Part shown: positions 3,352-25,712 of the stretch, piece after piece | Layout of the letters: every line of letters starts with the position of its first letter | How positions within the stretch are numbered: position 1 is the stretch's first letter | From: a virus | Lineage: Duplodnaviria > Caudoviricetes | Direction: 5' to 3' (one strand) | Length of the DNA: 25,712 bases | IMG/VR virus record: IMGVR_UViG_3300020413_000070 | Location: 1 to 25,712 of that record | The notes under the pieces: generated by a model | Told to the model about the DNA's origin: nothing | Databases searched by the model: none | What the model saw: the letters and a program-made list of their open reading frames with translations, nothing else | Program-made: the position numbers and the translations under genes

Positions 3352-3359
3352 TATAAATA
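3352..3359 (+). promoter_or_regulatory. T4-type late promoter (gp55-dependent TATAAATA box)
   Basis: Exact TATAAATA in the 32-nt gap between the gp7 stop (3347) and the ATG at 3380. Confidence 0.8.
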
Positions 3360-3379
3360 ACATAAATTAAGAGTGAAAC

Positions 3380-3871
3380 ATGGCAAAACAAGTAATAGCA
3401 ACAGGCAGCGCAGCTAACGACGGAACCGGAGATACACTACGATCTGCCGGTACGAAGATTAATTCTAATTTTACAGAATTATACGATATGCGCGCGCGAG
3501 TAACTAAAACAGAAACTACTGCCTCAATTAGTAATAATGACCAAGATAAATTAACTTTTGCTGATAGCGATGTTGGTAAGTCATTTGTATTGCATGAGAT
3601 TAAACCAAGTGCCGCATCTTATATTAAACTTTATACTGATTCAGATTTACGTGTAGCTGATATAGGTAGAGGACAATTAGCTTCTCCGGTAGGCGAAGGT
3701 TTAATAACTGAATTTGTAACTCAAGCAGATAGCGCTATCAGATTTGCACCTGGCATAATTGGCTATACAGATTCTGATAATGTATTAGGAGTTTCAATGC
3801 AAGTTAAAAATTTAAGTGGTAGCACAACTGCAATAAGTGTTCGTTTAAAAGCGTTAAAATTAGAGATATAG
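3380..3871 (+). CDS. Small virion protein with T4 gp9/gp10-type N-terminal baseplate-anchoring motif
   Basis: N-terminus MAKQVIATGSAANDGTGDTLRSAGTKINSNFTELY closely resembles the T4 gp10/gp9 N-terminal motif (DGTGD.LR.GG.KIN.NF.ELY), followed by a ~125-aa beta-rich domain. Confidence 0.7.
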   Translation: MAKQVIATGSAANDGTGDTLRSAGTKINSNFTELYDMRARVTKTETTASISNNDQDKLTFADSDVGKSFVLHEIKPSAASYIKLYTDSDLRVADIGRGQLASPVGEGLITEFVTQADSAIRFAPGIIGYTDSDNVLGVSMQVKNLSGSTTAISVRLKALKLEI

Positions 3872-3881
3872 GAATAACACC

Positions 3882-5324
3882 ATGACTGCTATAGCAACAG
3901 AAGCTTTAAAATTTAATTTTGCTGAATTATTGCATAAAGAAATAATAAACACGACTGATAGTAATCATTTCTATATTGGTATCGGTAAAAGTGATCAATA
4001 TGATAGTGCTTCTGATAACACAGTAGATCCAGTAAGAGTAAGAAGAGATGAGCAAGAAGCTCGATATAATTTAGAATCAATCATTAAAGTTTCTGAAACC
4101 GCAATGACTTTTAGTATTCCAAGAAATAATTGGATAAGTGGTACAATATATTCTGCATATAACGATAACCAAGTTGGATATCCAACTCAACCTTATTACG
4201 TAATTACTGAAGATCAACAAATTTATATTTGTTTAGCAAACAATCGTAATACTTCTGGTGTTGCACAACCATCTACAATAAAACCAAGTTTTGCTACTGA
4301 AGGTGTAGGAAATCATCAATCGTTTAAAACAGCTGATGGTTATATTTGGAAATATCTATATGAACTTTCAGTGGTTAAAGTTGCAGCATTTTTATCTTCT
4401 AATTTTATGCCAGTCGGAGTTTTTGATTCATCTACTGCGAGTGGTGCGGCTGAACAAGATCAAGCTAAAATAAGAAAAACTTCAGTGCCTGGTCAAATTA
4501 TTGGTGTTGAAGTCGTAGATCCGGGTGCTGGTTATTCAAGTACACCAACATTAAATTTTATCGGAAATGGAACAGGTGCTGCTGGTACGGTCACTCTTAA
4601 CGGTACGACCGTAGGAAAGATTGATATGAATTGTGTGATAAGTGATTCTGGATTTGGTTCAGGATATGATTTCGCACGTGCACAATTATCAGGTGGTGGT
4701 ACGCCAAGTAAACCAGCAGTTTTACGTCCTATACTTGGCCCGACAAAGGGATTTGGTTTTGACGCAAGAAAAGATTTAAAATCATCTTCCTTAATGTTTA
4801 ACGCTAAACCCGCAGGAGCTCAAAATAATAACTTTTCAATAACAACTACCGGTACGTTTGGTGGGCAATCTGATTTTAGACAGATAACATTATTTAAAAA
4901 TATAGATTTTATTGATAGTGCAACTGCAGGAAATAGAGTTCAAGTAACAGATGCAAGAGCAAATCGAATTGTAACATTAACAACTAAACCGGCTTTTGTT
5001 AAAGACGAAAAAATAATAGGACAAACAAGCGGTACTGTAGCTCATATTGATCACATAGATAGTACAGGCGGTGGAGCTTTACAGATTCATTATCATTTTA
5101 ATCATAGATCAGATTTTAGACACGGTACATTTTCAGGTTCAGAAGTTCTTCAAGGAAATACATCTGGTGTTTTTGGAACAGTAGATTCTGATAGTCAACC
5201 TAAAATAGCGAATTTAGGAGCTATTAATAGATTTAGTGGTGACGTGCTGTATATTGATAATAGATCGAGAATTATAAGATCTGCTTCACAAACTGAAGAT
5301 ATAAAAATTGTACTTACAATATAG
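3882..5324 (+). CDS. gp8: Baseplate wedge subunit, T4 gp8-like
   Basis: 480 aa; IPRNNW.SG..Y, YYVIT....YICL.N, TADGYIWKYLY, and C-terminal SGDVLYIDNRSRIIRSASQTEDIKIVL. Confidence 0.9.
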   Translation: MTAIATEALKFNFAELLHKEIINTTDSNHFYIGIGKSDQYDSASDNTVDPVRVRRDEQEARYNLESIIKVSETAMTFSIPRNNWISGTIYSAYNDNQVGYPTQPYYVITEDQQIYICLANNRNTSGVAQPSTIKPSFATEGVGNHQSFKTADGYIWKYLYELSVVKVAAFLSSNFMPVGVFDSSTASGAAEQDQAKIRKTSVPGQIIGVEVVDPGAGYSSTPTLNFIGNGTGAAGTVTLNGTTVGKIDMNCVISDSGFGSGYDFARAQLSGGGTPSKPAVLRPILGPTKGFGFDARKDLKSSSLMFNAKPAGAQNNNFSITTTGTFGGQSDFRQITLFKNIDFIDSATAGNRVQVTDARANRIVTLTTKPAFVKDEKIIGQTSGTVAHIDHIDSTGGGALQIHYHFNHRSDFRHGTFSGSEVLQGNTSGVFGTVDSDSQPKIANLGAINRFSGDVLYIDNRSRIIRSASQTEDIKIVLTI

Positions 5325-5336: not shown

Positions 5337-8300
5337 ATGGCAACAAATCTTTCAAATGTAACTTTCAGCAACGTTTACAAAGACGATTTTGCAGACAGTG
5401 ATAATTTTCACAGAATACTATTTAATAGTGGTAAAGCATTACAAGCTCGTGAGCTTACGCAAATGCAAACTATTATTCAAAAAGAAATCGAAAGATTTGG
5501 CTCAAATATTTTTAGACAAGGTGGAGCAGTTACTGGCGGTGGTTTAACAATTGATAATAAAGTCGAATTTGTTAACTTAGCTACAAATCAATTACCATCA
5601 ACTCCGTCAACGCTTGTTGGAAAATATTATAAAGATAGTACAAACAATCTTATTATTAGAATTAAAGAAGTTTTAGTAGCAAATGCATCAACTTCAGATA
5701 TTGCTATTGGTAGTGGAAGTGCAGTTAATCATAATGTTGATACATTAATTATAGAATATGTAAGCACAAGTTCAGGTACGGCTGGATCAGCACCAGTAAG
5801 ATTGCAAGCAAGTAATATGTTACAAAGAATAGTTGCAGCTAATGATTCAACTTTGTTTAATGATGCTGTTAATTATCCGGATATGGCAGTAACGGCTGGT
5901 CATCCAAGCACAGGACAAAACATATCTGGTTTAGGATTAAAGGCAAATATCGATAAAGGTAGTTTCTTTGTACAAGGACATTTTGTATTTTGTAAAGCTC
6001 AAACAGTTACAATACAAAGATTTTCACCAATACCTAATACAATATTAGGATTTCAAATAGCTGAACAAATTATTAATACTGATGATGATACGTCTTTATT
6101 TGATAATCAAGGTGCATCACCCAATTTATCATCACCCGGTGCAGATAGATATCGAATACAATTAACTCTTACAACAAAAGTTCTTGCTGGTAGTAATAAT
6201 TTTATATACTTAGCAAATATTGTAAATGGTAAACTTTCTGATGAAGTTAATTTAGATAATTCATATAAACAATTACAAGAAGTATTGGCTCTTCGAACAA
6301 AAGAGGAATCAGGTAATTATATTGTAAAAAGATTTGATTTAAATCCGAGTTCAATAACTTCTACAAAAGTCAATTATAATATATCAGATGGCATTGCGTA
6401 TGTCGACGGTTACAGATTAGATTTAGATGCAAAAAGTGTCGAAGTCGATAGACCGACTACAACTCAAGAAGTTGATGGTGAATTAATTAGTACTAATTTA
6501 GGTAATTACGTTGTAGTTGCCGGTGATCACTCAAGTGATTCTGCTAGTTTAGAAAACAACAATATACCAGATATATCTAATTTTCAAAAATTAAATTTAT
6601 ATGCAGCGTTTTCTGCAGGACAAGGAACAGCCGGTGGTAATACTGCTGATCATGCAGCATTAGTTATTGGATCAGCTCGTTGTCGTGGACTTTATAGAGA
6701 AACAACTGGTAGATATCGAATGCATTTATTTGATGTTCGAATGAAAGTTGGTCAATCATTTTCTTTTGTAAGAAGTATTGGTAGAGATCAAACAAATTTC
6801 ATGAATGTTGTTTTAGAAGGCGATCAAGCTGTTCTTAAAAATACTATTAATAATGATTTGTTATTTTCACTTCCAAAAAATAGACCACAGTTTGATGGCA
6901 TCACTGGTTCATCGATGATTGTACAAAGAAAATTTACTTTCACAACATCGGCCGGACTAACTTCTATTTCTGGTACAAACGGCGGTGGGTTACCTGCTGG
7001 TTGTGATGCATTCTTTGGTGGATCAAGTTGGGTAGTATCAGAAGTTGGAGAAGGAATCGTTGAAGGCGCAGTTTGTTCAGTTGAAGCAGGTAATGTTACT
7101 TTTGCAGTTACTGGCTTACCTGTTGGATCTAAAACATTTAATGTGCTTGCGCAAGTTCAAATGAGTGGATCTACATCAGTAGCAGAAAGAACAAAAACAT
7201 TAAAAGAGACTACAATAACTCGAGGTGCAACTTCTGATTCAGATGGTCGTGGATTTAAATTTATAAGTTTAGATAAACCTGATATTTTTGCAATCAAATC
7301 AGTTAAAGAAACAGATTCAAATGGTGTAGACATATCTGGTAATTTTGAATTAGATAACGGTCAAAGAGATAACTATTATGGTATCGGAAGATTGTTACCT
7401 AAAAAGAATGTAGATATGCCAGCTGCCAATGTATTTGTAAGATATCAGTATTTTGAGCATGAAGCTTCTGTGACTGGTGTTGGTGGACAAAAATGTTATT
7501 TTAGTGCTACTTCTTATAAGAATAACTCAAATGCAGTAGGTTCATTAGATGGCACCGGTGTAACATATGAAACAATACCTGATTATACAAAAGGTAATGG
7601 ACAAAAAGTTAATTTAAGAGATGTTTTAGATTTTAGACCGGTAGGTGTACTACAACATGATTTTGATTCGGCCGGTGATACATTAAAAGCAAATGGTCAT
7701 CATAATATTACATTTGATTCAAATGGTCCAGATGTTGCTGGTACAGTACCATTAATTCATTTATTACCACAACCCGGTGGAACAGTTCAAGCAAATGTAA
7801 CATATTTTTTAGGAAGAAAAGATCGTTTAGTTGCAAGCTCTTCAAATCTTAGAGGTGGAAGATCTGCAACTGGATCTGTTGATTATATACAGGGTTTACC
7901 AAGCTTTGATCCTGAATTACCACATCTTCCAAACGGAGCTATGCCGCTTTATAATATTAATTTAGGTGGAAATACTATTAATACAAAAGACATTACTACA
8001 GAGCCATACGCAAATAAAAGATTTCAAATGGCTGACATTGCAAGATTAGAAAGAAGAATTGATAATTTAGATGAAGTTACATCATTAAGTTTATTAGAAT
8101 TAAATACATCAACACTTAACGTTGTTGATTCTGCTGGTAATTCAAGAGTTAAGTCTGGATTTTTAGTAGATAATTTTAGAGATTATTCATTTACAGATAT
8201 TACTAATAATCAACAAAGAGCAAGTATTGATCCGCAAGCTGGTTATTTGACGCCATTAGTTATATCTAAAGTTAATAGATTATTATATGATTCGGATGAT

Positions 8301-10808
8301 GCTCAAAGTAATGCTGCTCTTCGCGGAGATAACTTATACTTATCAATGTCAGATTCTGCAGTAGAATATATCAATCAAAATCTTGCAACTACTACAGAAA
8401 ATATTAATCCATTTGCAGTTATCAGATCTAATGGTCATATCGAATTATCACCTTCTACAGATACATGGGTAGAAACACAATTTGCTGCGTCTGAAGTTAA
8501 TGGCGGTGGAACTGTAACTCAAACAGTACCAACACAAATTCAGTTTGGAAGTTTAGCCTCTTTTAGAGATAACTGGATTGGTCAACCAACTGCATGGAAT
8601 GTTGGAGAAACATCAGTAGCAGCAGCTGGTAGAAGAAGAGATTTTTCTAGAACAAATACAAGAAGTGTTACAATTAGTGGAGGATTTGATACAGTAACTA
8701 CACAAGTTGGTGAAAGAGTATTAAGTGTTTCAATATTACCATTTATGAGATCAATTAAAGTATATTTTAGAGCTCAAGGTTTAAGAAGAAAAACAAGGCA
8801 CTTTCCATATTTTGGTAATTCATCAATTGATAACTTTACAAGACAAGAATCATTTGCTCGATATTCTACAAGAACAGATGCTGGCGCAGTAAGTGCTGGT
8901 GCCACTGCTCACCCAGATGGTTCAACAAATCTTACTTCTGATAGTAATGGAACTATTACGGGTTCATTTATTATTCCAAGCAATAATACATTACAGTTTA
9001 ATACGGGTACGCAACAATTTAAATTATTAGATATTAGTGGTGGTATAGATTCAAATTCTATATCTTCGGCCAATACATCTTTTACTGCGGCCGGTACATT
9101 AGAAACAAGACAAAGAATATTTACTTCAACACGTGTTGAAAGAGTTCAAACTATTGTTGAAGAAGCAACTTCGTCTTGGACAAATTGGGTTGATCCATTA
9201 GCTCAATCTTTCTTAGTTGATCCTATCGATAATCCAAATGGTGTATTCATAACTAAAGTAAAGATTTATTTTGCAACAAAAGATGATAATCATGGTGTGC
9301 CTGTTCAGTGTCAGATAAGACCAATGGAAAATGGAGTTCCTGTAAATCAACCTTTACCGCAAGCTGTTAAGTTTGTAGAACCTGCTAATGTTAATGCAAC
9401 CGCTTTAAGTGGTGCAACAATGGGTGGTGTACAAGGTGCGGGAACTGATTTTAAATTTGATGAACCAATTTACTTGGCTCCTGGTGAAGAATATGCGATT
9501 GTTCTTCTTGCAGAATCAACAGCTTATACAGTTTACGTGGCAGAAACTTATGAGTTTGTTGTTGGTACAACTGCACAAAGAATAGCTAAACAACCTACTC
9601 TCGGTTCATTGTTTTTATCACAAAATGGTTCAACATGGACACCTGAACAAAGTAAAGATTTAATGTTTACTTTATTTAGAGCAGATTTTAATACAAGCAG
9701 TTCAGCAATATTAAATAACGCTACTCCATCAACTGAAAAACTTGCAACTAACCCTATGCAAACTACTAGTGGTAATAATAATATAAGAGTATTTCATACA
9801 GGACATGGTTTTAACACAGGAGATAAAGTTACAATAAGTGGAGTAACTGATGCAATTGCAACTGTATCAGCTTCTATTATAAACGGAAATAGAACTATTT
9901 CAGAAGTAGATCATACAGGATATACCTTTACGGTTGGTTCTAATCCGAACGCAAACGTAAGAGGCGGAGGCGCGAATGTAGTTGTTACTGCTAATACTGT
10001 TTTAAATACATTTTTACCTCAAATTCGAAATTTACAAATACGAAATACTTCAATTACAGCTCAAGCTAAATTAACACTTGGAAGATCCTTTGGCGGAGCA
10101 CCTAATTCTTTAGGAAGTCAAACCAGTAGAACTAATGGTAGTCATGGATATTCAAAGGAAACCAGCTTTTCTGATATTATTTTAAATGAATTTAATTATA
10201 CAGATATGTCAAGATATATCCTTACAGATTCAAATGCAGCGCCGGCGCAACATCTAAGTGGTGCAAAGTCCGCAACTATTAAATTAAATTTGGCTACAAA
10301 TGATACAAAAGTTTCTCCTGTTATTGATTTACAAAGAGCAAACTTAGTTGGATTTGAAAATTTAATTGATAAACAACATTCAAGTACTAATGCCACTTTA
10401 GGCGTTAAACCTATATTAACTTCTTTTACTGATGAAATTGAACCTACTGATGGTACACACGCTGCTAAACATTTAACAAGACCGGTTAACTTAGAAGAGT
10501 CAGCAGTTGGATTAAAAATATTATTTGCGGCTAATAGACCTGCTGCTTGTGAATTTAAAGTTTATTTTAGAACAGCTACTTCAGATGAAGATTTATCTAC
10601 TCAAGCATTTATATTACAGCCAGAATTTAGTAATAATCCAGCTGATGATGATAATCAAACCTTTAGAGAATACGAATATCTACCAGGTGGACAAATTGGT
10701 AATTTAGATGCATTTACAAAATTTCAAATTAAGATTGTTATGAGATCAACAAATCAATCTAAGATACCAACATTAAAAGATCTTAGAGTGATTGCGATGG
10801 TGACATAA
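5337..10808 (+). CDS. vrlC: Large virion structural protein, VrlC-like (DUF4815)
   Basis: 1823 aa; YKDDF....NFHRILFNSGKALQARELTQMQTIIQ, LFDNQG..N...PGADRYRI, RTKEESGNY.V, KSGFLVDNF, DPLAQSF, GSLFLSQNGSTWT, and C-terminal FQIKIVM....P..KDLRVIA. Position after gp8 is typical of marine T4-like phages. Confidence 0.85.
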   Translation: MATNLSNVTFSNVYKDDFADSDNFHRILFNSGKALQARELTQMQTIIQKEIERFGSNIFRQGGAVTGGGLTIDNKVEFVNLATNQLPSTPSTLVGKYYKDSTNNLIIRIKEVLVANASTSDIAIGSGSAVNHNVDTLIIEYVSTSSGTAGSAPVRLQASNMLQRIVAANDSTLFNDAVNYPDMAVTAGHPSTGQNISGLGLKANIDKGSFFVQGHFVFCKAQTVTIQRFSPIPNTILGFQIAEQIINTDDDTSLFDNQGASPNLSSPGADRYRIQLTLTTKVLAGSNNFIYLANIVNGKLSDEVNLDNSYKQLQEVLALRTKEESGNYIVKRFDLNPSSITSTKVNYNISDGIAYVDGYRLDLDAKSVEVDRPTTTQEVDGELISTNLGNYVVVAGDHSSDSASLENNNIPDISNFQKLNLYAAFSAGQGTAGGNTADHAALVIGSARCRGLYRETTGRYRMHLFDVRMKVGQSFSFVRSIGRDQTNFMNVVLEGDQAVLKNTINNDLLFSLPKNRPQFDGITGSSMIVQRKFTFTTSAGLTSISGTNGGGLPAGCDAFFGGSSWVVSEVGEGIVEGAVCSVEAGNVTFAVTGLPVGSKTFNVLAQVQMSGSTSVAERTKTLKETTITRGATSDSDGRGFKFISLDKPDIFAIKSVKETDSNGVDISGNFELDNGQRDNYYGIGRLLPKKNVDMPAANVFVRYQYFEHEASVTGVGGQKCYFSATSYKNNSNAVGSLDGTGVTYETIPDYTKGNGQKVNLRDVLDFRPVGVLQHDFDSAGDTLKANGHHNITFDSNGPDVAGTVPLIHLLPQPGGTVQANVTYFLGRKDRLVASSSNLRGGRSATGSVDYIQGLPSFDPELPHLPNGAMPLYNINLGGNTINTKDITTEPYANKRFQMADIARLERRIDNLDEVTSLSLLELNTSTLNVVDSAGNSRVKSGFLVDNFRDYSFTDITNNQQRASIDPQAGYLTPLVISKVNRLLYDSDDAQSNAALRGDNLYLSMSDSAVEYINQNLATTTENINPFAVIRSNGHIELSPSTDTWVETQFAASEVNGGGTVTQTVPTQIQFGSLASFRDNWIGQPTAWNVGETSVAAAGRRRDFSRTNTRSVTISGGFDTVTTQVGERVLSVSILPFMRSIKVYFRAQGLRRKTRHFPYFGNSSIDNFTRQESFARYSTRTDAGAVSAGATAHPDGSTNLTSDSNGTITGSFIIPSNNTLQFNTGTQQFKLLDISGGIDSNSISSANTSFTAAGTLETRQRIFTSTRVERVQTIVEEATSSWTNWVDPLAQSFLVDPIDNPNGVFITKVKIYFATKDDNHGVPVQCQIRPMENGVPVNQPLPQAVKFVEPANVNATALSGATMGGVQGAGTDFKFDEPIYLAPGEEYAIVLLAESTAYTVYVAETYEFVVGTTAQRIAKQPTLGSLFLSQNGSTWTPEQSKDLMFTLFRADFNTSSSAILNNATPSTEKLATNPMQTTSGNNNIRVFHTGHGFNTGDKVTISGVTDAIATVSASIINGNRTISEVDHTGYTFTVGSNPNANVRGGGANVVVTANTVLNTFLPQIRNLQIRNTSITAQAKLTLGRSFGGAPNSLGSQTSRTNGSHGYSKETSFSDIILNEFNYTDMSRYILTDSNAAPAQHLSGAKSATIKLNLATNDTKVSPVIDLQRANLVGFENLIDKQHSSTNATLGVKPILTSFTDEIEPTDGTHAAKHLTRPVNLEESAVGLKILFAANRPAACEFKVYFRTATSDEDLSTQAFILQPEFSNNPADDDNQTFREYEYLPGGQIGNLDAFTKFQIKIVMRSTNQSKIPTLKDLRVIAMVT

Positions 10809-11032
10809 TGAGTGGTTATGTAAAAGTTGAAGGGCATTCATATCTTATGAGAGATGGTCAATCCGGAGCGATAATAAATACAAATATTAATGAAATGACA
10901 CAAGCGCGTATAAGAAAAGCTCAGCAGAAAAAACAACAAAATGAAATAAAAGAATTAAGAAGTGAACTTCAAGAAATGAAACAACTTTTAAATAAAATGA
11001 TAGAGGTTAATGATGGCCGTCACAACAGTTAA
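10808..11032 (+). CDS. Small conserved hypothetical protein with C-terminal coiled coil
   Basis: 74 aa, VKVEGH..L.RD..SGAIINT then heptad-like EIKELRSELQEMKQLL; coupled to the VrlC stop by TAATG. Similar small ORFs follow VrlC in T4-like marine phages (recollection). Confidence 0.75.
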   Translation: MSGYVKVEGHSYLMRDGQSGAIINTNINEMTQARIRKAQQKKQQNEIKELRSELQEMKQLLNKMIEVNDGRHNS

Positions 11033-11285
11033 TTTATCCGATACAATTTCACAATGGGTGACTAAAACAAATACTATATCGACTAATTTAGGTGACATAT
11101 CTACTTTAGCTACACCTGTAACAACTAATACTGTTGCGGCAATTAATTCGATTAAGACACGTGATTCGGCCGGTGTAAGAACAATAACAAATTTTACAAG
11201 TTTTAACTTTGATAATGTTGTAACGTTACAAATATTCGATTCATCAGGAAGTGTATTAAAAACGCTTAGAACTCCGGGGTCTTAA
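11013..11285 (+). CDS. Small putative virion protein (short trimeric-fibre-like N-terminus)
   Basis: SDTISQWVTKTN...LGDISTL....VAAIN resembles N-termini of phage fibre/whisker proteins. GAGG at 11003-11006 favours ATG 11013 over 11010. Contains RDSA and FDSS. Confidence 0.6.
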   Translation: MAVTTVNLSDTISQWVTKTNTISTNLGDISTLATPVTTNTVAAINSIKTRDSAGVRTITNFTSFNFDNVVTLQIFDSSGSVLKTLRTPGS

Positions 11286-13015: not shown

Positions 13016-13656
13016 TGAATATAATATTTGTTAAATGGGGTACTAAGTACTCGAGTGATCACGTTATCAATTTATATAATTCTTTAAAGAATTACGATTA
13101 TCCAAATCACTACTATTATTGTTACACAGATAGAGATGCAGATGTTTTAATTAATGCTGGTCTTAGGACAGTTCCTATTCCAGAAAAACCATCGTTAAAA
13201 AAATGGTGGAATAAGCTTAAAATGTTTGATAAAGATTTTCCATTAGTTGGAAAAAATTTATATTTTGATTTAGATATTAAAATAAACTCTGATCCTTTTG
13301 ATATAATTAAGCAAATTAATTGGAATAAACTAACGGTGATTGATTGTCACTGGAAAAAATCTAATCTATATAAAAGATTGTCTAATTACGATGTTGATAT
13401 AAATTCATCAATGCTAGCGTGGCATTCTAAATCAACTAGTGTGCATGAAATGTGGGATCATTTTTATAACTCTGGTTATAAAGATTATTTCTTAAGAAAA
13501 TACGTTGGAATAGATCGCTATATAGTACATGAAGATTTTGAATATAATACATTTCCACATGACTTTATACAATCATATAAATATGAACCAGATAAAAAAG
13601 CACCAGTAACAACATTTGAAGAGGTAAAATTTGAAGGAACAAATTCTATATCGTAG
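13015..13656 (+). CDS. GT-A fold glycosyltransferase-like protein
   Basis: VKWGTKYS...V..LY, YCYTD, WWNKL.MF, DxD motif (LYFDLDI) and NSSML.W; pattern of GT8-related phage glycosyltransferases. Confidence 0.8.
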   Translation: MNIIFVKWGTKYSSDHVINLYNSLKNYDYPNHYYYCYTDRDADVLINAGLRTVPIPEKPSLKKWWNKLKMFDKDFPLVGKNLYFDLDIKINSDPFDIIKQINWNKLTVIDCHWKKSNLYKRLSNYDVDINSSMLAWHSKSTSVHEMWDHFYNSGYKDYFLRKYVGIDRYIVHEDFEYNTFPHDFIQSYKYEPDKKAPVTTFEEVKFEGTNSIS

Positions 13657-18096: not shown

Positions 18097-19406
18097 TGTC
18101 AAGTCCTAGATATATTTATATACATAAAAAATTAACTCAAAAAGTTAATCCAGAATCTTTGATAATTTCTAATAAAAAAAGAACTATTCCAGAAAATCAA
18201 AAATACATTAGCTGTTTTGCACCCTTTAATCATCTTAGAATTAATAGATCAGGTGAAGTATCACCGTGTTGTTTTTCTACACATAGAGAAAGATGGAAAA
18301 GAGGCAGTGTTAGTTTACGTGAAATTTGGTTTAAAGGTATTATTACCAAATATCAAGAACAAATGATTAATGAAAAATTACATTCAGGTTGTACTATATG
18401 CATTAATAAAATTAATCGAAATATTACTCCGCATATTCCAGATTATGATTGGAATGATAATGATAGAATGAGAAGCACACTTAATATAACCTATCCTAAA
18501 ATACTCGATATCGAATTATCTAATTTATGCAATTTAGAATGTCCTATGTGTTTTGGTTTTTTATCATCTAAGCATGCTATGAATCGAGATAAATTTTATA
18601 ATGAAAAAGCTGGTAAAGAATTACAAGGTAAAAAAAAGAATTGGGGTGTAAATAGATTTGATAGCGATAAAAACCTAAATGCATTTATCGAAGAGTTAAA
18701 AGAATTTATACCACATTGTAAAGAAATGCGTTTTGCAGGAGGCGAACCTTTTGCACATAAAGCTATGTATAAAATAGCAAAAGTAGTTGCAGAAATTAAT
18801 CCAGAAGTTAGATTAGAAATATGTACAAATGGAACTGTATATAATAAAAATGTTGAAAAAATCATAAAAGAAAATAATGTTTCTTTCTCATTTTCTATCG
18901 ATACTGTAATACCAGAAGAATATAATTCTATTCGTGTTGGTGCTGAATACGAAAAAACATTTCAAAACATTGAAAAAATATCTCAATTAACAACACCAGA
19001 AAATATAACAATATCTACTGTTTTAATGAGTAAGAATTGCAAAAACTTTATAAAATTTTTTAAATGGGGTTATGACAGAAAATATAAAATATTTGTTAAT
19101 ACGTACGATCTTCATGGAAGAAAAAGATGGATACCTGATTGGAGTTTATCTTTAGTAGATAAAGAAGTAAAAGACAATGTCATTAGCCAATGTGTGCATT
19201 GGTTAAACAAAATTAAAATAAAAGAAGAAGATTACAAATCAGACAATTTGTTTGAAAATAGAGATTTAGCCAAAAAATTAGCTGCTATTAAAATTTATAA
19301 TAATAATTATGAAAATCAACTTAAAAAAGTAATATTTTTATTAAAAGAAAACACTAGTCAAGAATTAATTGACATATCAGAAGAAGAAAACTGGACATAT
19401 ACTTGA
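18096..19406 (+). CDS. Radical SAM protein with N-terminal twitch/SPASM-like domain
   Basis: CNLECPMC, AGGEPF, CTNGT, FSIDT....Y..IR; N-terminal CFAPFNHLRINRSGEVSPCC...CTIC. Confidence 0.9.
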   Translation: MSSPRYIYIHKKLTQKVNPESLIISNKKRTIPENQKYISCFAPFNHLRINRSGEVSPCCFSTHRERWKRGSVSLREIWFKGIITKYQEQMINEKLHSGCTICINKINRNITPHIPDYDWNDNDRMRSTLNITYPKILDIELSNLCNLECPMCFGFLSSKHAMNRDKFYNEKAGKELQGKKKNWGVNRFDSDKNLNAFIEELKEFIPHCKEMRFAGGEPFAHKAMYKIAKVVAEINPEVRLEICTNGTVYNKNVEKIIKENNVSFSFSIDTVIPEEYNSIRVGAEYEKTFQNIEKISQLTTPENITISTVLMSKNCKNFIKFFKWGYDRKYKIFVNTYDLHGRKRWIPDWSLSLVDKEVKDNVISQCVHWLNKIKIKEEDYKSDNLFENRDLAKKLAAIKIYNNNYENQLKKVIFLLKENTSQELIDISEEENWTYT

Positions 19407-20089
19407 TGACTAGGCATTTTCATGGAAAAGAAAATAGAGATCTTATAAAGCATAAACATTTTGTATACGAACAAGATGGTGTTTATCATAAAAAAATTAC
19501 TAAATTTAGGACGCGTCATTGGTTTAATGATCCAGTTCGTGGTAAATCATATGCAGAAAATAAGTGGTTTAAAACTTATAAGAAAAGATTTAATGATCAT
19601 CCTAATTTTGTATCTTTATTACACATTGATTTTGATGACAAATATTATAAAATGAGTAAAATTGATTACGTTTGTACATTATATGAAAGATTAGATAATT
19701 TACTAGTAAATCAAGCAGCAAAAAAATATTCTAAAAATAAGAACAAATATTTAGACAATGAAAAAGAATGTATACAAAAAATATTTAATCAATATAAAAT
19801 TATTGTAAATCATATTCTTTCGTTTAACGATAACTTTTTACATATCGATATATGGGGTTATCAAAACGTACTGGTTGATAAAAATGATAATTTATTCTTA
19901 ATCGATCCAGATGGATTTACACATTTAAACACAAAGCACACACACTGGGCAAAATATAAGATGTATAAAAACCTAGCAGATATCAAAAGAATAGAACTTT
20001 TCATTATAAATAAAGATATTAATATCTCTTGGGAAAGAATTAGATACGGTTATTTGTCAGATAGTTGTAAAATACCTGCATCTAGTTAA
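19406..20089 (+). CDS. Protein-kinase-like fold phosphotransferase (APH/RIO/Kdo-WaaP-like)
   Basis: HPNFV, catalytic-loop-like FLHIDIWGYQNVLVD and metal-binding LIDPD. ATG at 19406 overlaps the upstream TGA (TGATG), preferred over TTG 19403. Confidence 0.65.
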   Translation: MTRHFHGKENRDLIKHKHFVYEQDGVYHKKITKFRTRHWFNDPVRGKSYAENKWFKTYKKRFNDHPNFVSLLHIDFDDKYYKMSKIDYVCTLYERLDNLLVNQAAKKYSKNKNKYLDNEKECIQKIFNQYKIIVNHILSFNDNFLHIDIWGYQNVLVDKNDNLFLIDPDGFTHLNTKHTHWAKYKMYKNLADIKRIELFIINKDINISWERIRYGYLSDSCKIPASS

Positions 20090-20100: not shown

Positions 20101-20108
20101 TATAAATA
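20101..20108 (+). promoter_or_regulatory. T4-type late promoter (TATAAATA box)
   Basis: Exact TATAAATA in the gap between the kinase stop (20089) and the ATG at 20135, followed by an AAGG RBS-like site. Confidence 0.8.
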
Positions 20109-20134: not shown

Positions 20135-20497
20135 ATGGCTCGGTACGAAGAATTTACTATAGATAAAGGTTCAGATATTTCAATTAGATTGGAATTAACT
20201 GATGCTGGTGGAGCTAAGAAAAACTTAACTGATCATTCTTTAAGAGCCAGAATAAAGAAGAATTATAATGACAGTGCAGGAGAAGCTGTTGAATTTTTTA
20301 CAGCAATACCTCTTGCAACTCAAACTGATGGAGTAGTAACTTTAGGATTAACGCATAGCCAAACTAAAGGGATGAAAGCAGGAAGATACGTGTTTGATGC
20401 TGAGCTAAATCATATTGCTGCAGGTGGTCTTCGAATAAAGGAACGTGTTTTAGAAGGTGTCATTACTGTTACTCCTTCTGTAATGGATTCGGCATAG
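20135..20497 (+). CDS. BppU-like small virion adaptor protein
   Basis: 120 aa, IDKGSD....L.....NLT.....I.......F......G.VTL.LT..QT..MK.GRYVFD.E....RVLEG.ITVTP, the pattern of BppU-N-like fibre-attachment domains; directly precedes the fibre genes. Confidence 0.65.
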   Translation: MARYEEFTIDKGSDISIRLELTDAGGAKKNLTDHSLRARIKKNYNDSAGEAVEFFTAIPLATQTDGVVTLGLTHSQTKGMKAGRYVFDAELNHIAAGGLRIKERVLEGVITVTPSVMDSA

Positions 20498-20506: not shown

Positions 20507-22936
20507 ATGGCGACAATCGTAAATACAATCACTCAATCCACCCCGAGCTCATCACCGGCTGAGGGTCAAGAAAAGAAAAATTTCGATTCGTCAAGAATAG
20601 ACTTTTTATCAAGCTCATTTGCAAACATTGATTCCGGAAGATATACAAATCTTCATGTTGATTCAGGGCATATTAATATATTAACAGCTAATAGTATTAG
20701 TTTTACTGGATTAAACGTAGACTCTGGTAATATTACCACATTATCAACAACGACTTTAAATCCTGCTACTATTAATGCTACAACAATTAACGGTGATTCT
20801 GGTAACTATACAAACCTTACGGCAGTTAATTTAACTGCTACTAATTTAAATATTAGTAATGGTACTACACTTTCTTTTGCAGGTATCTTTACAAATTTAA
20901 CGGCCGACTCAGCCAATATTACAAATATCACATCTAATACTTTAAAAAGAACTCCTCCTGCCGGTGTTACACCTGGTAAATACGGTCAAATGGGAGGTAA
21001 TAGTAAATTATCTAAAGCACCAATCATAACAGTTGATTCTTCTGGATTTATTAATATCACAGATCAAGGTGCTGTTGCTGGTGTTGCAAGTACTGCTTTT
21101 GATAGTGCTAGTTTTAACTTTAGTATTAATACTACTGATAGTGGAAGTACGCCAGTAGTTAAAATGGCTCATACAAGAAAGCCTGGTTTAGAGGCAAGTG
21201 CAAGTTTTTACGGAACAGCATCAAAAGTTCCAACAATTAAAATAAATGAATACGGTCATGTTGATAGTATTGCTTTAGTCGATATTGCAGGAATTAGTGG
21301 TACAAATTGGGATTCTGCTAATTCAACATTTCAAATTACTCAAACAGATGGTACTACAGTAAGTGAAGTTATTAATGGTTGGGGTGACAACCAAAAAATA
21401 TATTTCGGTGCTGGACAAGATTTAGAAATATATCATGATACGTCAAACAGTGTTATTAGAGATGGTGGAACTGGTAGTTTAATTATTGCTGGTGATACAA
21501 TTCAAATAATGAATGCAGCACAAACAGAAACAATGGGTTTGTTTCAACAAGATGCTGCTACTTCAATACATTATAATAATGATCCTAAATTATTAACAAC
21601 CGCAACAGGTGTTCAAGTAAGTGGTACCGCAGTAACAACTGCTGGGATTACTGCAGGTAGTCATATCTTACCGGCAACTGATGGCGACGTTGATCTTGGA
21701 TCTTCTACAAAGAAATTTAGAGATTTACATTTAAGTGGTTCAACTCTTAAAATTGGAACTATACAATTTAAAGACAGCGCATCCGGATTAAGAGTAGAAA
21801 AGATTACTGGCAATGAAGTAGTTCCAATTGTTTTTAGAGAGCTTGAAGTTGATTCTGCCACAGTATCAGGGAATATAACTGCCGGTACTTTTACAGGTGA
21901 CGGTAATGCTCTTACTAATTTTAATGCAGCTCAAATTAGAACGCACATGTCTGCAGGAACCGGTGTTGGATTTGCAAGTGGCGTTATATCGATTGGCCAA
22001 GCAGTAGGTACAGGTAATGACGTACAATTTAAAGATCTTTTATTAACTGGAGATTTAACAGTTCAAGGTACTACAACAACCATTAGTAGTGCAACAATGG
22101 ATGTTACAGATAAAAATATCACTATAGCAAAAGGTGCTGCTGATGCTTCAGCCGCAGACGGTGGTGGTATAAACATTGAAGGTGCTGGTGCTAACTTTAC
22201 TTACACAAGTAGTAATGATAGATGGAATATGAATAAAGCCCTTGTGGTTTCAATGGTACACGGCAACGTAACTGGTACTGTAACTGATATTAGTAATCAC
22301 AGTACTGATACTCTTTCAGAAGGTTCTACAAATCTATATTTTACACAAGGTAGAGCAAGACAATCTATTAGCGGCGACAAAGGTTTAACTTATAACTCTG
22401 GCGCCGGAATAATGGATGTTGATTCATCAAATATTATAGAATTTACAAGAGCTTCTTTAGGAGGCGATAAAGGTTTAACTTATAATACCACAACCGGTGT
22501 CATGGATGTTGATTCTGCTAACGTCAAAGAAATGTTTACCGGTGCAAATAACATAGTTTATAATAATTCCACTGGACAAATTCGTACAAATATAACAAGT
22601 GCAGATCTATCAACAGATAGTTCTTATTTAACTGCCACATCATCTAATCAACTAATATCATCGATATCAGCATTAACTCACAGAAGCGTAAAGTTTTTAG
22701 TACAAGTTCGTGTAGATGCCGGTGGTGAAAAAGTTCAAACTTCGGAAATAAATGTTATACATCAAGGTGGTAATGCGTTTATGACTGAATACGGTAGAGT
22801 AGGTAATACTGACGATAATTTGGCTACATATGATGCAGATATAAATTCAAACAATTTAAGATTGTTGGTGACTCCAGCAAATGCAAATACTGAATTTAAA
22901 GTATTTAAAACGGCAGTCAAAATTAATACAACTTAA
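20507..22936 (+). CDS. Tail fibre / fibre-like virion protein
   Basis: 809 aa, T/S/G/N-rich with phage fibre modules (FGAGQDLEIYHD, ILPATDGDVDLGSSTKKFRDLHL, GDLTVQGTTTT, TDTLSEGSTNLYFT..RAR, GDKGLTYN repeats); GGAG RBS upstream. Confidence 0.8.
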   Translation: MATIVNTITQSTPSSSPAEGQEKKNFDSSRIDFLSSSFANIDSGRYTNLHVDSGHINILTANSISFTGLNVDSGNITTLSTTTLNPATINATTINGDSGNYTNLTAVNLTATNLNISNGTTLSFAGIFTNLTADSANITNITSNTLKRTPPAGVTPGKYGQMGGNSKLSKAPIITVDSSGFINITDQGAVAGVASTAFDSASFNFSINTTDSGSTPVVKMAHTRKPGLEASASFYGTASKVPTIKINEYGHVDSIALVDIAGISGTNWDSANSTFQITQTDGTTVSEVINGWGDNQKIYFGAGQDLEIYHDTSNSVIRDGGTGSLIIAGDTIQIMNAAQTETMGLFQQDAATSIHYNNDPKLLTTATGVQVSGTAVTTAGITAGSHILPATDGDVDLGSSTKKFRDLHLSGSTLKIGTIQFKDSASGLRVEKITGNEVVPIVFRELEVDSATVSGNITAGTFTGDGNALTNFNAAQIRTHMSAGTGVGFASGVISIGQAVGTGNDVQFKDLLLTGDLTVQGTTTTISSATMDVTDKNITIAKGAADASAADGGGINIEGAGANFTYTSSNDRWNMNKALVVSMVHGNVTGTVTDISNHSTDTLSEGSTNLYFTQGRARQSISGDKGLTYNSGAGIMDVDSSNIIEFTRASLGGDKGLTYNTTTGVMDVDSANVKEMFTGANNIVYNNSTGQIRTNITSADLSTDSSYLTATSSNQLISSISALTHRSVKFLVQVRVDAGGEKVQTSEINVIHQGGNAFMTEYGRVGNTDDNLATYDADINSNNLRLLVTPANANTEFKVFKTAVKINTT

Positions 22937-23770
22937 TAACGGCAGTTAAAATTACAGGATAAATCATATGCCTATTAGAAAAATAACGTTACAAAGAGCG
23001 GCTTCTGATAAACCGCAGCTGGGTGCAGATTATATTGATTCAAGCTTTGCACTAGACTCGGCAGAAGCAATTCAGCTACTAGGATTTAATCCAACACTTG
23101 GTAATAGTTTTGTCGACTCTGCAGAAGCTAAAAAACTTATTGAAGGAGATAAAGGTTTAACTTATAATACTGGTACCGGTGTTATGAGTATTGATTCTGC
23201 AAACATCAAAGAAATGTTTGAAGGTGACAAAGGTTTAGTTTATAATAATTCTACCGGTGTTTTTAATTTAGATTCAGCAAACGTTATTAGTTTTACTCGA
23301 GAATCGATATCTGGTGATAAAGGTTTAGTTTATAACAATGCTACTGGTGTATTTAATCTTGATTCAGCAAACGTTAAATCAATCTTTGGAACAGATAACA
23401 AAGGTTTAGTTTATAGTAATGGTACATTTAATGTTGACTCAGCAAATATAAAAAGTTTTACGGTTGCTGATGCGATTAATGATGGCACTACTACTATTGC
23501 GCCTTCACAAAATGCGGTGTTTGATGCACTAGCTCTTAAAGCAAATACGGCTGCAATACCAACTCTTGGTGGAAGTTTTGTAGACTCGGCTGAAGCGAGA
23601 AAACTAATTTCAGGTGATAAAGGGTTAACGTATAATAACGCAACTGGTGTCATGGATCTTGACTCTGCTAATGTCACAGAAGTTGCTAGAGCAAGTATTA
23701 TATCACATAATAAAGGAATAACATATAATAATACTAGTGGTGTTATTCAAGTCGACTCTTCAAATATCAA
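22373..23770 (+). repeat. Degenerate ~25-30-codon coding repeat GDKGLxYNxxTGVxx(V/L/I)DS(A/S)N shared by both fibre genes
   Basis: Two full copies at the end of the 809-aa gene and six in the next gene. 22466-22537 vs 23148-23219 match at 62/72 nt, with the first 23 nt identical. Confidence 0.9.
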
Positions 23771-25712
23771 CATTATAGCCGATGCAAGAATAACTACGGC
23801 TTTAGCTGGCAATATTATCATTGGTGGTACCTTAACAGTTAACGGTACTACAACTACTGTTAATTCAAATACTGTTAATATTGGTGATAATATAATTGTA
23901 TTGAATTCTGATGAAACTGGAGCTGCTTCACAAGACGCCGGAATTGAAATAGAAAGAGGTACTGACGCTAACGTTCTATTGAAATATGATGAAAGTTTAA
24001 ATAGATGGCGTTTTACTAATGATGGTACAACTTATCAAGATCTCGGAGCGGGTACCGGTGATATTACTGGTGTTGACATTACTGCAGGTACTGGATTAAC
24101 TGGCACGTTAAGTACAACTTCAGGTGATCATACACAAACAATTAATGTTGATGTTGGTACAAGCGCAAGTAAGATTGTACAGCTAGATGGTTCTGCTAAA
24201 TTGCCGGCAGTTGATGGATCAGCTTTAACTAATTTACCAGGAGGTTCTTTTGTTGGTTTATCAGATACTCCTGCAAACTTTACCGGTGCTGCAACTAAAA
24301 TAGTAAGAGTTAATGCCGCCGGAAATGCATTAGAATATTTATCTGATACTACATTAGTTGATGCTGATTTTTCTTCTGCTGGTTTAATGAAAACAGATGG
24401 TGCTGGTAATTATTCATTAGTTACTGATGCTAGCGCCAATTGGAATACCGCTTTTGGTTGGGGTAATCATGCGAGTGCTGGATATTTAACATCACAAACA
24501 TCTCATGCTGATGTTCTAGTTGATGGTGATTTTTCATCAGCAGGTATTATGACAACAAATGGTTCTGGCACTTATACAGTAATTACTGATGCTAGTTCAA
24601 ATTGGAATACTGCGTTTGGCTGGGGTAATCATGCTAGCGCTGGCTATCTTACTGGCACTTTACCAACTTTAGGTGGAAGTTTTGTAGACTCGGCTGAAGC
24701 TGCTAAAATACCAGAAACAGAATTTAGTGTTACAACAGCAAATGGCGGTGTATACAAATTTACTGGTGATGGTTTTCCTACACAATCTGGTGATAATCCA
24801 CCAATCTTTTTTACTCGTGGTAAAAAATATGTTATAAACAATTCTTCTCATTCAGGACATCCACTTTATATTAAAACAACTGCAGGTGCTGGAACTGGAA
24901 ATCAATATTCATCCGGAGTAACTGGACAAGGAACTGTTAAGGTTACTTTTGAAGTTCCGATGGACGCACCTAAAGTATTATACTACCAATGTTCTGCTCA
25001 CACAGCGATGTATGGTCCGATTTATATATTAAATGATACATTTGGTCCTGATTCTTCTGGAGTTAATACATTAGCAGATGCTAGAATTGCTGCTGCTTCA
25101 ATTAACGCTTTATCAGACGTAAATACTGCAGGTATATCAAGTGGCCAAGTTTTAAAATATAACGGATCACAATTTGTAGCTGGTAACGATTCGAGCACAA
25201 TTGGTATTCAATTCGCAGATTCAAATGGAACATTAGCAACATCCGGCACGTTAGTAACTTTTACTGGAACCGGTGTTACTGTTTCTGGATCAGGCGCAAG
25301 TAAGACCGTTAATATTACAGGTGGAGGTGGAGGAGGAGGCGGATCTCTTAACAATATTGTTGAGGATACCACACCACAATTAGGCGGAAATTTAGATGTA
25401 AATGGCCAAAAAATAACTAGTGTTTCAGGTGGTAATATTGATATTGAACCAAATGGAACAGGTGACGTATTACTTGGTAATTTCAGATTTGATGCCGATC
25501 AGAGCGTTGGTTCTGGTCAAGACAACCACGTTTTAACTTATGATAATTCAACCGGAAAAATAAGTTTAGAAGCATCTGCAGGCGGCGGTGGTGGAAGTGC
25601 TATTACAATACAAGAAGAAGGATCCTCGTTATCAACTGCAGCATCTACAATTAATTTTGTTGGAGCAGGAATAACTGCTAGTGGAACAGGTTCAACAAAA
25701 ACAATTACAGTT
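22968..25712 (+). CDS. Long modular tail fibre protein, 3'-truncated by the window edge (absent from the supplied ORF track)
   Basis: My translation from ATG 22968 (AGGA upstream) is open for 915 codons to the window end: MPIRKITLQRAASDKPQLGADYIDSSFALDSAEA...; contains GDKGLxYN repeats, GTLTVNGTTTTVNS, two NWNTAFGWGNHASAGYLT copies, a cupredoxin-like domain, DTTPQLGGNLDVNG and poly-Gly linkers. Confidence 0.9.
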   Translation, partial: MPIRKITLQRAASDKPQLGADYIDSSFALDSAEAIQLLGFNPTLGNSFVDSAEAKKLIEGDKGLTYNTGTGVMSIDSANIKEMFEGDKGLVYNNSTGVFNLDSANVISFTRESISGDKGLVYNNATGVFNLDSANVKSIFGTDNKGLVYSNGTFNVDSANIKSFTVADAINDGTTTIAPSQNAVFDALALKANTAAIPTLGGSFVDSAEARKLISGDKGLTYNNATGVMDLDSANVTEVARASIISHNKGITYNNTSGVIQVDSSNINIIADARITTALAGNIIIGGTLTVNGTTTTVNSNTVNIGDNIIVLNSDETGAASQDAGIEIERGTDANVLLKYDESLNRWRFTNDGTTYQDLGAGTGDITGVDITAGTGLTGTLSTTSGDHTQTINVDVGTSASKIVQLDGSAKLPAVDGSALTNLPGGSFVGLSDTPANFTGAATKIVRVNAAGNALEYLSDTTLVDADFSSAGLMKTDGAGNYSLVTDASANWNTAFGWGNHASAGYLTSQTSHADVLVDGDFSSAGIMTTNGSGTYTVITDASSNWNTAFGWGNHASAGYLTGTLPTLGGSFVDSAEAAKIPETEFSVTTANGGVYKFTGDGFPTQSGDNPPIFFTRGKKYVINNSSHSGHPLYIKTTAGAGTGNQYSSGVTGQGTVKVTFEVPMDAPKVLYYQCSAHTAMYGPIYILNDTFGPDSSGVNTLADARIAAASINALSDVNTAGISSGQVLKYNGSQFVAGNDSSTIGIQFADSNGTLATSGTLVTFTGTGVTVSGSGASKTVNITGGGGGGGGSLNNIVEDTTPQLGGNLDVNGQKITSVSGGNIDIEPNGTGDVLLGNFRFDADQSVGSGQDNHVLTYDNSTGKISLEASAGGGGGSAITIQEEGSSLSTAASTINFVGAGITASGTGSTKTITV
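23568..24700 (+). repeat. Exact 29-nt direct repeat GGTGGAAGTTTTGTAGACTCGGCTGAAGC (23568-23596 and 24672-24700)
   Basis: Encodes part of PTLGGSFVDSAEA; a diverged third copy (PTLGNSFVDSAEA) starts at 23091. Confidence 0.92.
24354..24653 (+). repeat. Tandem coding duplication with a 162-nt (54-aa) period
   Basis: LVDxDFSSAGxMxTxGxGxYxxxTDASxNWNTAFGWGNHASAGYLT at 24354-24491 and 24516-24653. Confidence 0.9.
24717..25030 (+). other. Cupredoxin-like (type-1 copper) domain inside the fibre ORF
   Basis: NPPIFFTRGKKYVI...SGHPLYI...APKVLYYQCSAHTAMYGPIYI gives His631, Cys675, His678 and Met681 of the ORF starting at 22968. Confidence 0.8.

Follow-up and report, generated by a model that had tools for sequence, protein, structure and literature searches.

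A candidate serine tag on outer virion proteins and a separable enzyme cassette linked to a predicted fibre-tip protein in an uncultured marine T4-like phage

In T-even phages, the trimeric fibre protein gp37 is capped by the monomeric adhesin gp38. The proteins orf91 and orf310 described here are predicted to share this arrangement, with one monomer on a trimeric fibre tip and its gene directly after the fibre gene, yet orf310 differs in its lack of a sequence or Foldseek match, its three internal repeats and its linkage to an enzyme cassette. Phage-encoded glycosyltransferases (GTs) have been proposed to sugar-coat virion proteins in mycobacteriophages (Freeman et al. 2023, via PMC12619734 and PMC10877033), where the accessible text places the glycans on capsid and tail tube, at their C-termini; for the present myophage glycosylation is likewise proposed, but on a short internal motif scattered over proteins of the outer baseplate, the neck, the sheath and the fibres. 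GTs expressed with virion genes are found here as well, namely GT8-like genes under a late promoter; relatives also carry a GT25 pair. In the host recognition cluster between vrlC and gp14 of pelagimyophages, GTs are read as acting on host LPS, and the accessible text mentions neither a link to a fibre-tip protein nor a DS motif (PMC7029224). That cluster shares with the present locus its position, its GT/radical SAM cassettes and its variable content, and the cultured phage Mosig has homologues of orf310, GT1, the methyltransferase (MTase), GT2 and GT3. In Bacteroidetes O-glycosylation, as far as the accessible text goes (PMC11611037), Asp precedes the acceptor Ser and Ala is favoured at +1, as here.

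The window (the whole 25,712-nt stretch of DNA that was analysed; Table 1) carries after vrlC a variable region with fibres, GTs and radical SAMs, of the island type described above. Its gp8 is 26% identical to that of pelagimyophage HTVC008M, and by sequence the phage is placed in another clade. Two separable systems are proposed, with a probability of roughly 0.45: an orf310-linked cassette that would build or tailor a fibre-tip glycan, and a clade-wide O-glycosylation tag on the serine of DS[AD], written by a GT25 enzyme encoded elsewhere.

Table 1. Positions of features in the window
Feature	Position	Strand	Remarks
gp7-like baseplate wedge protein	2301..3347	+	DS-rich, 6 vs 2.3 expected; begins 5′ of 3352
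T4-type late promoter TATAAATA	3352..3359	+	conserved upstream of 44/48 homologues
gp9/10-like connector	3380..3871	+	PF07880; DS-rich, 4 vs 1.3
gp8 baseplate wedge	3882..5324	+	DS 8 vs 2.8
VrlC-like baseplate protein	5337..10808	+	DS 14 vs 9.9 (not significant alone); DS[AD] 7 vs 1.3
orf91, short fibre, predicted trimer	11010..11285	+	alignment; complex model
orf310, three-repeat predicted monomer, candidate adhesin	11286..12218	+	no DS[AD]; structure model, co-occurrence
orf264, conserved orf310 neighbour	12221..13015	+	putative assembly chaperone, by position only
GT1, GT8-like GT-A (YFDLD), cassette core	13015..13656	+	
SAM-binding Rossmann enzyme (methyl- or aminopropyl-transferase), cassette core	13631..14263	+	nearest: spermidine synthases
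GT2, GT8-like GT-A (YLDFD)	14260..15114	+	39% identical to Mosig_00091
GT3, distant GT1 paralogue (VIDLD)	15111..15749	+	no Pfam match
Three N-terminal-twitch radical SAM enzymes, variable part	15746-16951, 16948-18096, 18096-19406	+	
Kinase-like ORF	19403..20089	+	motifs HIDIWGYQN, LIDPDG only
Second late promoter TATAAATA	20101..20108	+	precedes orf120 and fibres
orf120, fibre-assembly-like	20135..20497	+	phrog_1084, phrog_3304; 2 DSA
Tail fibre	20507..22936	+	DS 16 vs 5.5
Fibre-like ORF, truncated by window end	22968..25712	+	DS 14 vs 6.4, partly in repeats

The original prediction described eight enzyme genes wired into the tail operon and expressed late, with no gap above 12 nt between 3352 and 20089. 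The inter-ORF gaps from 3380 to 20089 (10, 12, −1, −23, 0, 2, −1, −26, −4, −4, −4, −4, −1 and −4 nt) bear out the spacing, and late expression of the cassette is supported. The wiring holds in this window but is not conserved: among 44 non-redundant orf310 loci, 34 have GT1 on the strand opposite to orf310. The promoter copies at 3352 and 20101 occupy the only two gaps above 30 nt, with further copies at 13576 and 20005, both within ORFs (chance expectation 5.3). Furthermore, three of the four inverted cassettes that abut orf120 have an exact late promoter of their own, against none of ten forward ones. Between 10500 and 23200, scans for sigma-70 promoters (80 vs 82 in shuffles) and terminators (6 vs 3.5 in shuffles) returned no clear excess.

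The enzyme identities held to different degrees. All three radical SAMs pass Pfam PF04055, with an N-terminal SPASM/twitch match and CxxxCxxC, and score 190, 160 and 163 in order against NF033640 (N_Twi_rSAM; cut-off 170). BtrN-like radical SAMs oxidise a sugar or cyclitol hydroxyl; a BtrN-type model is absent among the radical SAM profile matches listed. The three GT-A assignments are plausible but weak: a DxD motif is present in GT1, GT2 and GT3, yet none has a Pfam match, GT8 (PF01501) included, and GT8 matches in relatives (2/22 for GT1 and 6/11 for GT2) reach E values up to 0.05; a search of GT2 against solved structures returned nothing. The predicted methyltransferase is a SAM-binding Rossmann protein closest to spermidine synthases, and the kinase was read from two motifs. 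The kinase-like ORF is rare (five database matches, itself included), and the second radical SAM is absent from the close relatives L002/L003. Family searches gave no meaningful match for orf264.

A DS excess in virion proteins but not in enzymes, as originally claimed, was confirmed: DS occurs 69 times against 35.2 expected in eleven structural ORFs, where it is the most enriched of all dipeptides, and 11 times against 9.1 in the enzymes. In the eight outer proteins DS[ASG] is found 43 times (8.1 expected) and DS[AD] 35 times (4.4 expected), while the enzymes lack DS[ASG] (0 vs 1.1). The proposed acceptor D-S-(A/S/G) can be refined: with the two fibres set aside, position +1 shows no excess of S (2 vs 1.6) or G (2 vs 1.4), in contrast to A (11 vs 1.3) and D (9 vs 1.1); hydrophobic-D-S-(A/D) is a better description. 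Over 1541 unique contexts, A and D at +1 are enriched 4.2- and 2.7-fold, with V/I three residues after the serine and a hydrophobic residue at −1. SD is not enriched here, the sites being isolated DS[AD]. The enrichment of flanking virion proteins is true of the outer ones; gp25, gp6, orf74, orf310 and orf264 together have no DS[AD] (0 vs 1.1), thus some flanking virion proteins lack the motif.

Across genomes of the DS clade, observed/expected DS[AD] counts were 60/7.2 in gp7-like proteins (21 copies), 71/11.2 in gp8, 161/31.9 in VrlC, 17/2.4 in gp14, 22/1.4 in gp15 and 23/5.2 in gp18, and 16 copies of orf120 held 24 against 2.2. The counts were 1/12.0 in gp6, 1/5.9 in gp27-like proteins, 1/4.6 in gp48, and 3/2.6 and 0/0.8 in gp23 and gp19, the capsid and tube type of target of mycobacteriophages. 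The DS[AD] excess is confined to proteins of the outer baseplate, the neck, the sheath and the fibres. Plain DS in gp23 (28 vs 14.1) leaves room for some other capsid site. In literature searches that covered mostly open papers, no publication turned up on phage C48C1 or on a DS motif among the virion proteins of phages. A DS tag on outer virion proteins is supported, and that it marks a covalent modification is somewhat more probable than not.

The candidate writer, GT25a, lies outside the window and was placed via the close relative G002 (baseplate proteins 88–94% identical), where it is ~19 kb upstream. GT25a and its neighbour GT25b match PF01755 at 48–58 bits (gathering cut-off 24), and the GT25b profile matches procollagen galactosyltransferase (E 0.003); procollagen galactosyltransferase is a protein O-glycosyltransferase of family GT25. 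All 18 DS-rich genomes that reach the locus carry GT25a (non-fibre DS[AD] ratio 4.0–9.7), 11 of these 18 having been chosen through GT25a. It is absent from all three locus-spanning genomes of a DS-poor lineage, that of phage C48C1, and no orthologue was found in W01, G086, G087, W02, W03, G024 and G025, whose non-fibre ratio is 0–1.1. This group is nested within the DS clade in a gp8 tree and in a five-gene head/packaging tree (an inner-baseplate tree, unresolved at its base, was left out), and motif and GT25a are jointly absent from it. For example, the motif at gp8 site 41 is present in 49 of 74 DS-clade sequences and at site 393 in 58 of 74, against 0 of 22 in the C48C1 lineage at either site. 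The link between GT25a and the motif rests on a single gain and a single loss. When proteins from four genomes were screened, GT25a was the only enzyme with the full presence/absence pattern. As sole writers, GT25b and a GT-A neighbour were rejected because DS-poor G086 keeps both, a GT29-like gene because DS-poor G086, W01 and G087 keep it, and the c231 GT because DS-poor W01, G086, G087 and G092 keep it. The GT29-like gene has no Pfam match, its label being a reading of the sequence. Cultured phages gave no GT25a or GT25b orthologue, only three weak partial cyanophage matches.

In the proposed mechanism, soluble GT25a, an NDP-sugar transferase, would add the first sugar late in infection to the serine of exposed DS[AD] loops, and the neighbouring GT25b, GT-A and GT29-like enzymes would extend the glycan; the variable cassette enzymes may possibly also tailor it. 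GT25a as the writer is somewhat less probable than the tag itself and falls a little short of an even chance. The tag now has one candidate writer and one peptide motif, and the cultured phage C48C1 offers a natural negative control. Should the proposal prove correct, phages would possess a cytoplasmic O-glycosylation code of three residues, bearing on marine host range and virion stability and usable for glyco-engineering.

Alternatively, DS[AD] could be structural or non-covalent (a turn, a helix cap, cation binding or docking of a decoration protein) and have spread in one clade, GT25a co-occurring by shared ancestry. The wider DS context fits a helix N-cap with a hydrophobic staple, the hydrophobic −1 and V/I +3 residues resembling such caps; in a model of gp8, however, four of the eight DS sites are in loops, three at strand ends and one before a three-residue helical turn, with none inside regular helices. 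Single large fibres keep DS[AD] in the GT25a-negative lineage (15/3.2 in W01, 10/3.1 in G086, 12/3.7 in G087 and 8/1.6 in G092), non-virion proteins show no genome-wide avoidance (32/37 in the DS clade vs 20/39 in the loss group), and the DS at the orf91 tip is in a predicted interface and not conserved. Yet the motif is found in at least seven non-homologous proteins, and the close, nested C48C1 lineage makes the same proteins without it. The structural or non-covalent reading is judged improbable.

For the second proposed system, the cassette, the evidence lies in its linkage to orf310, which holds in both directions. GT1 is downstream of orf310 in all 43 scorable loci (26 DS-rich, 17 DS-poor), and all 20 non-duplicate MTase loci that extend 6 kb to both sides have orf310 and GT1 nearby. 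Five orf310 loci beside neck genes, outside the counted sets, have no cassette downstream. As exceptions, G009 has MTase and GT2 matches without orf310, G001 and L004 pair GT1/MTase with a Tyr-repeat paralogue of orf310, and W01 has a GT1-like gene elsewhere; an insertion hotspot could account for part of the link. A parallel module combines a Tyr-repeat version of the tip protein with a putative oxygenase and a further GT, a pairing that suggests enzymes which track the sequence of the tip protein.

The structure model of orf310 has a pLDDT of 92.8. The predicted complex has a single orf310 on top of three orf91 chains, with each of its repeats holding the tip of one chain (residues 73–84). 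The complex score was 0.69 (best control 0.26; partner pLDDT 90; contact agreement between runs ≥94%); 116 of 157 solved pairs and 2 of 215 mismatched ones attained the mark, which applies only roughly to this case. Weak fold leads point to a beta-prism (MABP-like; 2qp2, Z 6.9, rmsd 4.2, 117 aligned; 3tow, Z 5.2, rmsd 4.4, 111 aligned). Foldseek searches of PDB and of viral libraries gave the model no match at E ≤ 0.001, and an atlas search gave only unnamed clusters, below 0.9. GT1 and the SAM-binding enzyme, the core, would act at the fibre tip, separately from the DS tag, and GT2, GT3, the radical SAMs and the kinase would make its decoration strain-variable. A virion-related role, as the original prediction held, is supported, with the orf310 tip as the likely target; action on the orf91–orf310 tip itself is put at even odds. 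Marine myophage GT islands, read in print as modifiers of the host surface with no substrate assigned, would here gain a candidate substrate in a fibre-tip protein, which is testable in cultured Mosig (homologue Mosig_00097).

On the rival reading, the enzymes of the cassette act on the surface of the host cell (LPS O-chain, serotype conversion against superinfection), as proposed, in the accessible text of PMC7029224, for GTs of the vrlC–gp14 island of SAR11 myophages; the DS motif would then be a question of its own. GT1 and GT2 are GT8-like, of a family active on LPS, and their place beside an adhesin would be in keeping with a receptor/receptor-masking pair; late promoters on forward and inverted cassettes would, however, suit a virion target better than early exclusion, and the parallel Tyr-repeat module has enzymes that seem to track the tip. 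Modification of the host surface is judged improbable.

The original prediction that the window's three GTs glycosylate DS serines, with the MTase, radical SAMs and kinase tailoring the glycan, fits the tight late co-transcription here, the lack of DS[ASG] in the enzymes and the presence of the cassette in many DS-clade genomes, but is contradicted by co-occurrence in both directions. Cassette orthologues are absent from five DS-rich genomes (G007, G012, G043, G050 and G051; two of them 84–87% complete), while 17 of 43 orf310 loci with GT1 are DS-poor and Mosig, with its cassette homologues, has DS[AD] 2 vs 3.0. The motif is independent of the cassette, the outcome that the original prediction had itself named as refuting; the cassette very probably does not write DS, and its role as DS writer was rejected. 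Least probable of all is a host enzyme of the Bacteroidetes type, with loss in the C48C1 lineage reflecting a host switch: its sequon, D-(S/T)-(A/I/L/V/M/T), which was subsequently extended to S/G/C/F (PMC11611037, accessible text), is similar, but here DT is depleted and not enriched (in Mosig too and so not specifically in the DS clade), D, outside the published sequon, is the second commonest +1 residue, I/L/V/M/T are not favoured, and a periplasmic system is set against virion proteins assembled in the cytoplasm, for which the candidate writer is a phage GT25.

A broader generalisation is doubtful: that this uncultured, abundant marine T4-like clade has its own sequon-directed O-glycosylation (one GT25, hydrophobic-D-S-(A/D)) together with swappable, tip-matched cassettes on the receptor-binding tip, orf310 being paired with GT1/MTase and the Tyr-repeat tip with the other GT and oxygenase. 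With such a sequon system and tip-matched cassettes, vrlC islands would decorate the virion, not the host. The gp14 end of the vrlC–gp14 island lies beyond the window and is seen in G006, G007 and G008.

The 25.7-kb virus record comes from a T4-like phage and covers its baseplate region, with genes for gp25, gp6, gp7-like, gp9/10-like, gp8 and VrlC proteins, two fibres and eight enzymes, as well as small ORFs. The closest cultured matches of VrlC are in phages C48C1 (34%), Mosig and HTVC008M; it is a single 1823-aa ORF in the window, whereas many relatives (L009-L017) have it divided into ORFs of about 1200-1350 and 525 aa. The enzyme genes are packed as tightly with the structural genes as originally noticed, with all intergenic gaps from 3380 to 20089 at ≤12 nt, and the late promoter at 3352 is conserved, preceding 44 of 48 homologues. 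The enzyme labels were fair yet uneven: on sequence grounds the assignment of three of them as radical SAM proteins is firm, while the glycosyltransferase (GT), methyltransferase (MTase) and kinase calls are weaker. GT1 and GT2 are weakly GT8-like (via relatives), GT3 aligns with GT1, the family nearest to the MTase profile is the spermidine synthases, and the kinase label is based on two sequence motifs. QueC/asparagine-synthase-like ATP-pyrophosphatase genes recur within the cassette of relatives (L004, L012, G044, L048 and L054; weak Pfam hits).

Asp-Ser (DS) is the top enriched dipeptide in the 11 structural ORFs of the window (69 versus 35.2 expected), whereas the enzymes show no such excess (11 versus 9.1), as had been noticed. 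The proposed D-S-(A/S/G) motif held for alanine: 1541 unique contexts, drawn from 21 genomes, show A (4.2x) and D (2.7x) enriched right after DS, S and G both near background there, and a mostly hydrophobic residue just before it. In the gp8 tree, a DS-rich clade is set apart from outgroups with DS at chance level, and the DS[AD] motif is, as judged from sequence, a clade trait. In genomes of this clade (gp-numbered names following the C48C1 annotation), observed/expected DS[AD] is high in gp7-like (60/7.2), gp8 (71/11.2), VrlC (161/31.9), orf120 (24/2.2), gp14 (17/2.4), gp15 (22/1.4) and sheath gp18 (23/5.2), low in gp6 (1/12.0), gp27-like (1/5.9) and gp48 (1/4.6), and at chance in the capsid (3/2.6). 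In eight clade copies of the major capsid protein gp23, plain DS is found 28 times versus 14.1 expected.

The cassette had been proposed to write the DS tag; across relatives, however, motif and cassette are independent, and the cassette was rejected as writer of the motif. Five DS-rich genomes (G007, G012, G043, G050 and G051; non-fibre DS[AD] ratios of 5.0-8.3), whose contigs span the cassette position, lack MTase, GT3 and twitch radical SAM genes, and their GT matches are all distant. Conversely, Mosig carries orf310 (the predicted fibre-tip protein), GT1, MTase, GT2 and GT3 at a DS[AD] ratio of 0.7, and 17 DS-poor loci also have the cassette. The feature is real and its mechanism was mis-assigned: it splits into a variable set of enzymes linked to a candidate adhesin, and a probable DS[AD] tag shared across the clade. 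Between their orf74 and orf120 homologues, G012, G043 and G051 carry, in place of the orf310 module, a third, unrelated set of genes, about ten without a label and one radical SAM.

Positions of features in the window and in related genomes and contigs
Feature	Record	Position	Remark
Late promoter TATAAATA	window	3352 and 20101	exact sequence
orf264	window	12221-13015	
Tyr/Phe-x-Gly-x repeat paralogue of orf310	W01	141011-151054	
Tyr/Phe-x-Gly-x repeat paralogue of orf310	G086	86293-91695	
Tyr/Phe-x-Gly-x repeat paralogue of orf310	G087	74713-79455	
Tyr/Phe-x-Gly-x repeat paralogue of orf310	L004	11673-12701	
Tyr/Phe-x-Gly-x repeat paralogue of orf310	G001	58515-59492	
ATP-pyrophosphatase gene in cassette	L004	16772-17515	weak Pfam hit
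ATP-pyrophosphatase gene in cassette	L012	15966-16625	weak Pfam hit
Extreme DS density	L015	3663-4541, 11360-13025	
Extreme DS density	G008	43648-45466	

The cassette follows orf310. Among the best 80 of 435 orf310 loci, GT1 lies downstream in all 43 with enough DNA on both sides to be scored (26 DS-rich and 17 DS-poor). In 34 of the 44 non-redundant loci whose downstream DNA extends 3.5 kb, GT1 is on the opposite strand. Five copies adjoining neck genes (L409 and L414-L417), removed from the counted sets by the flank and duplicate filters, have no cassette downstream; on one contig (L413/L415) it comes after the other orf310 copy. A search in the opposite direction, starting from MTase and biased to close relatives, gave 63 loci (two without a called ORF and nine duplicates set aside); all 20 that are flanked by 6 kb on either side have orf310 and GT1, and 25 of 32 shorter ones have orf310. 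Whole-contig exceptions to the pairing are G009, G001, L004 and W01. A late promoter of its own is present in three of the four inverted cassettes that abut orf120 and in none of ten forward ones, so late timing seems to be maintained where co-transcription is lost. In L405, L406 and L419, late promoters stand back to back upstream of orf120 with 20 nt between them, one pointing to the inverted cassette and the other to orf120.

The orf310 model (pLDDT 92.8) has three repeats with one helix each. Foldseek found no match to it in PDB and viral libraries at E up to 0.001; the top VIA-align rows, beta-prism domains (Z 6.9, rmsd 4.2, 117 aligned), give no more than a lead. One orf310 with three copies of orf91, the preceding short fibre, scored 0.69 versus 0.26 for the best control (116 of 157 solved pairs reach the mark for this score, as do 2 of 215 mismatched ones; these counts apply only roughly here), with at least 94% contact agreement between runs and a partner pLDDT of 90. 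Residues 73-84 of each orf91 chain are predicted to contact one orf310 repeat each. These scores favour, without proving, a monomeric orf310 that caps a short trimeric fibre, similar to T-even phages, where monomeric gp38 caps the trimeric gp37 fibre. The neighbouring orf264 is ~100-120 aa longer than most homologues owing to a central charged, coiled-coil-like stretch.

A paralogue of orf310 with a long [YF]xGx[YF] repeat extension (the 3347-aa protein of C48C1 has the most overlapping matches, 207) is followed by GT-like c231 and c206 (a putative oxygenase as read from sequence) in G001, L004, L046, L073, W01, G086, G087, G092 and G007, where downstream DNA is seen. The enzyme set therefore varies with the type of tip protein, and this pair is a candidate second tip-modification module. 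Islands of GT and radical SAM genes are known from pelagimyophages (PMC7029224; also PMC12379486), and mycobacteriophages are a known case of phage enzymes that glycosylate the virion. Host LPS is an alternative target of the cassette, in line with the proposal of PMC7029224 for pelagimyophage GTs, and cyanophage GTs have been read as host-surface or DNA modifiers (PMC12801897). No acceptor residue was found on orf310.

The candidate writer of the motif is encoded outside the window. Comparison of long contigs revealed, upstream of gp32, a cluster of two GT25 genes (GT25a and GT25b), a GT-A and a GT29-like gene, which in G002 (baseplate proteins 88-94% identical to those of the window) lies ~19 kb before gp25. 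Both GT25 genes are present in all 18 DS-rich genomes reaching the locus, 7 chosen via gp8 or VrlC and 11 via GT25a itself. A C48C1 gp8 search gave 53 loci and brought up a DS-poor lineage; one of the 53, L374, is DS-rich and outside it. This lineage is nested within the DS clade in the gp8 tree (support 0.999) and also in a five-gene head/packaging tree (sister to DS-rich G007; 0.993), although its sister differs between the two. GT25a is absent from all three of its genomes spanning the locus: G086 retains the other three genes, and W01 and G087 the GT29-like gene. Genomes with GT25a have non-fibre DS[AD] ratios of 4.0-9.7, and those lacking it 0-1.1. When proteins of <900 aa from four genomes were screened, GT25a was the only enzyme in all 18 DS-rich genomes with no orthologue in six negatives; nor was one found in cultured phages of the collection searched. 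The association of GT25a with the motif is one gain plus one loss.

DS[AD] is a candidate clade-wide tag with GT25a as its single candidate writer, and the Bacteroidetes O-glycosylation sequon is similar (PMC11611037). A helix-cap motif also fits the sequence context, but by secondary structure the gp8 model (pLDDT 88) puts one of eight DS sites before a (three-residue) helical turn, with four in loops and three at strand ends. No report of the motif in phage virions was found at title/abstract level. Non-virion proteins of the clade show no avoidance of DS[AD], and in large fibres of the DS-poor lineage it persists, in part within repeats, at three to five times the expected number. One subclade reaches extreme DS density (16 in 292 aa and 29 in 393 aa) with no obvious sequence repeats.
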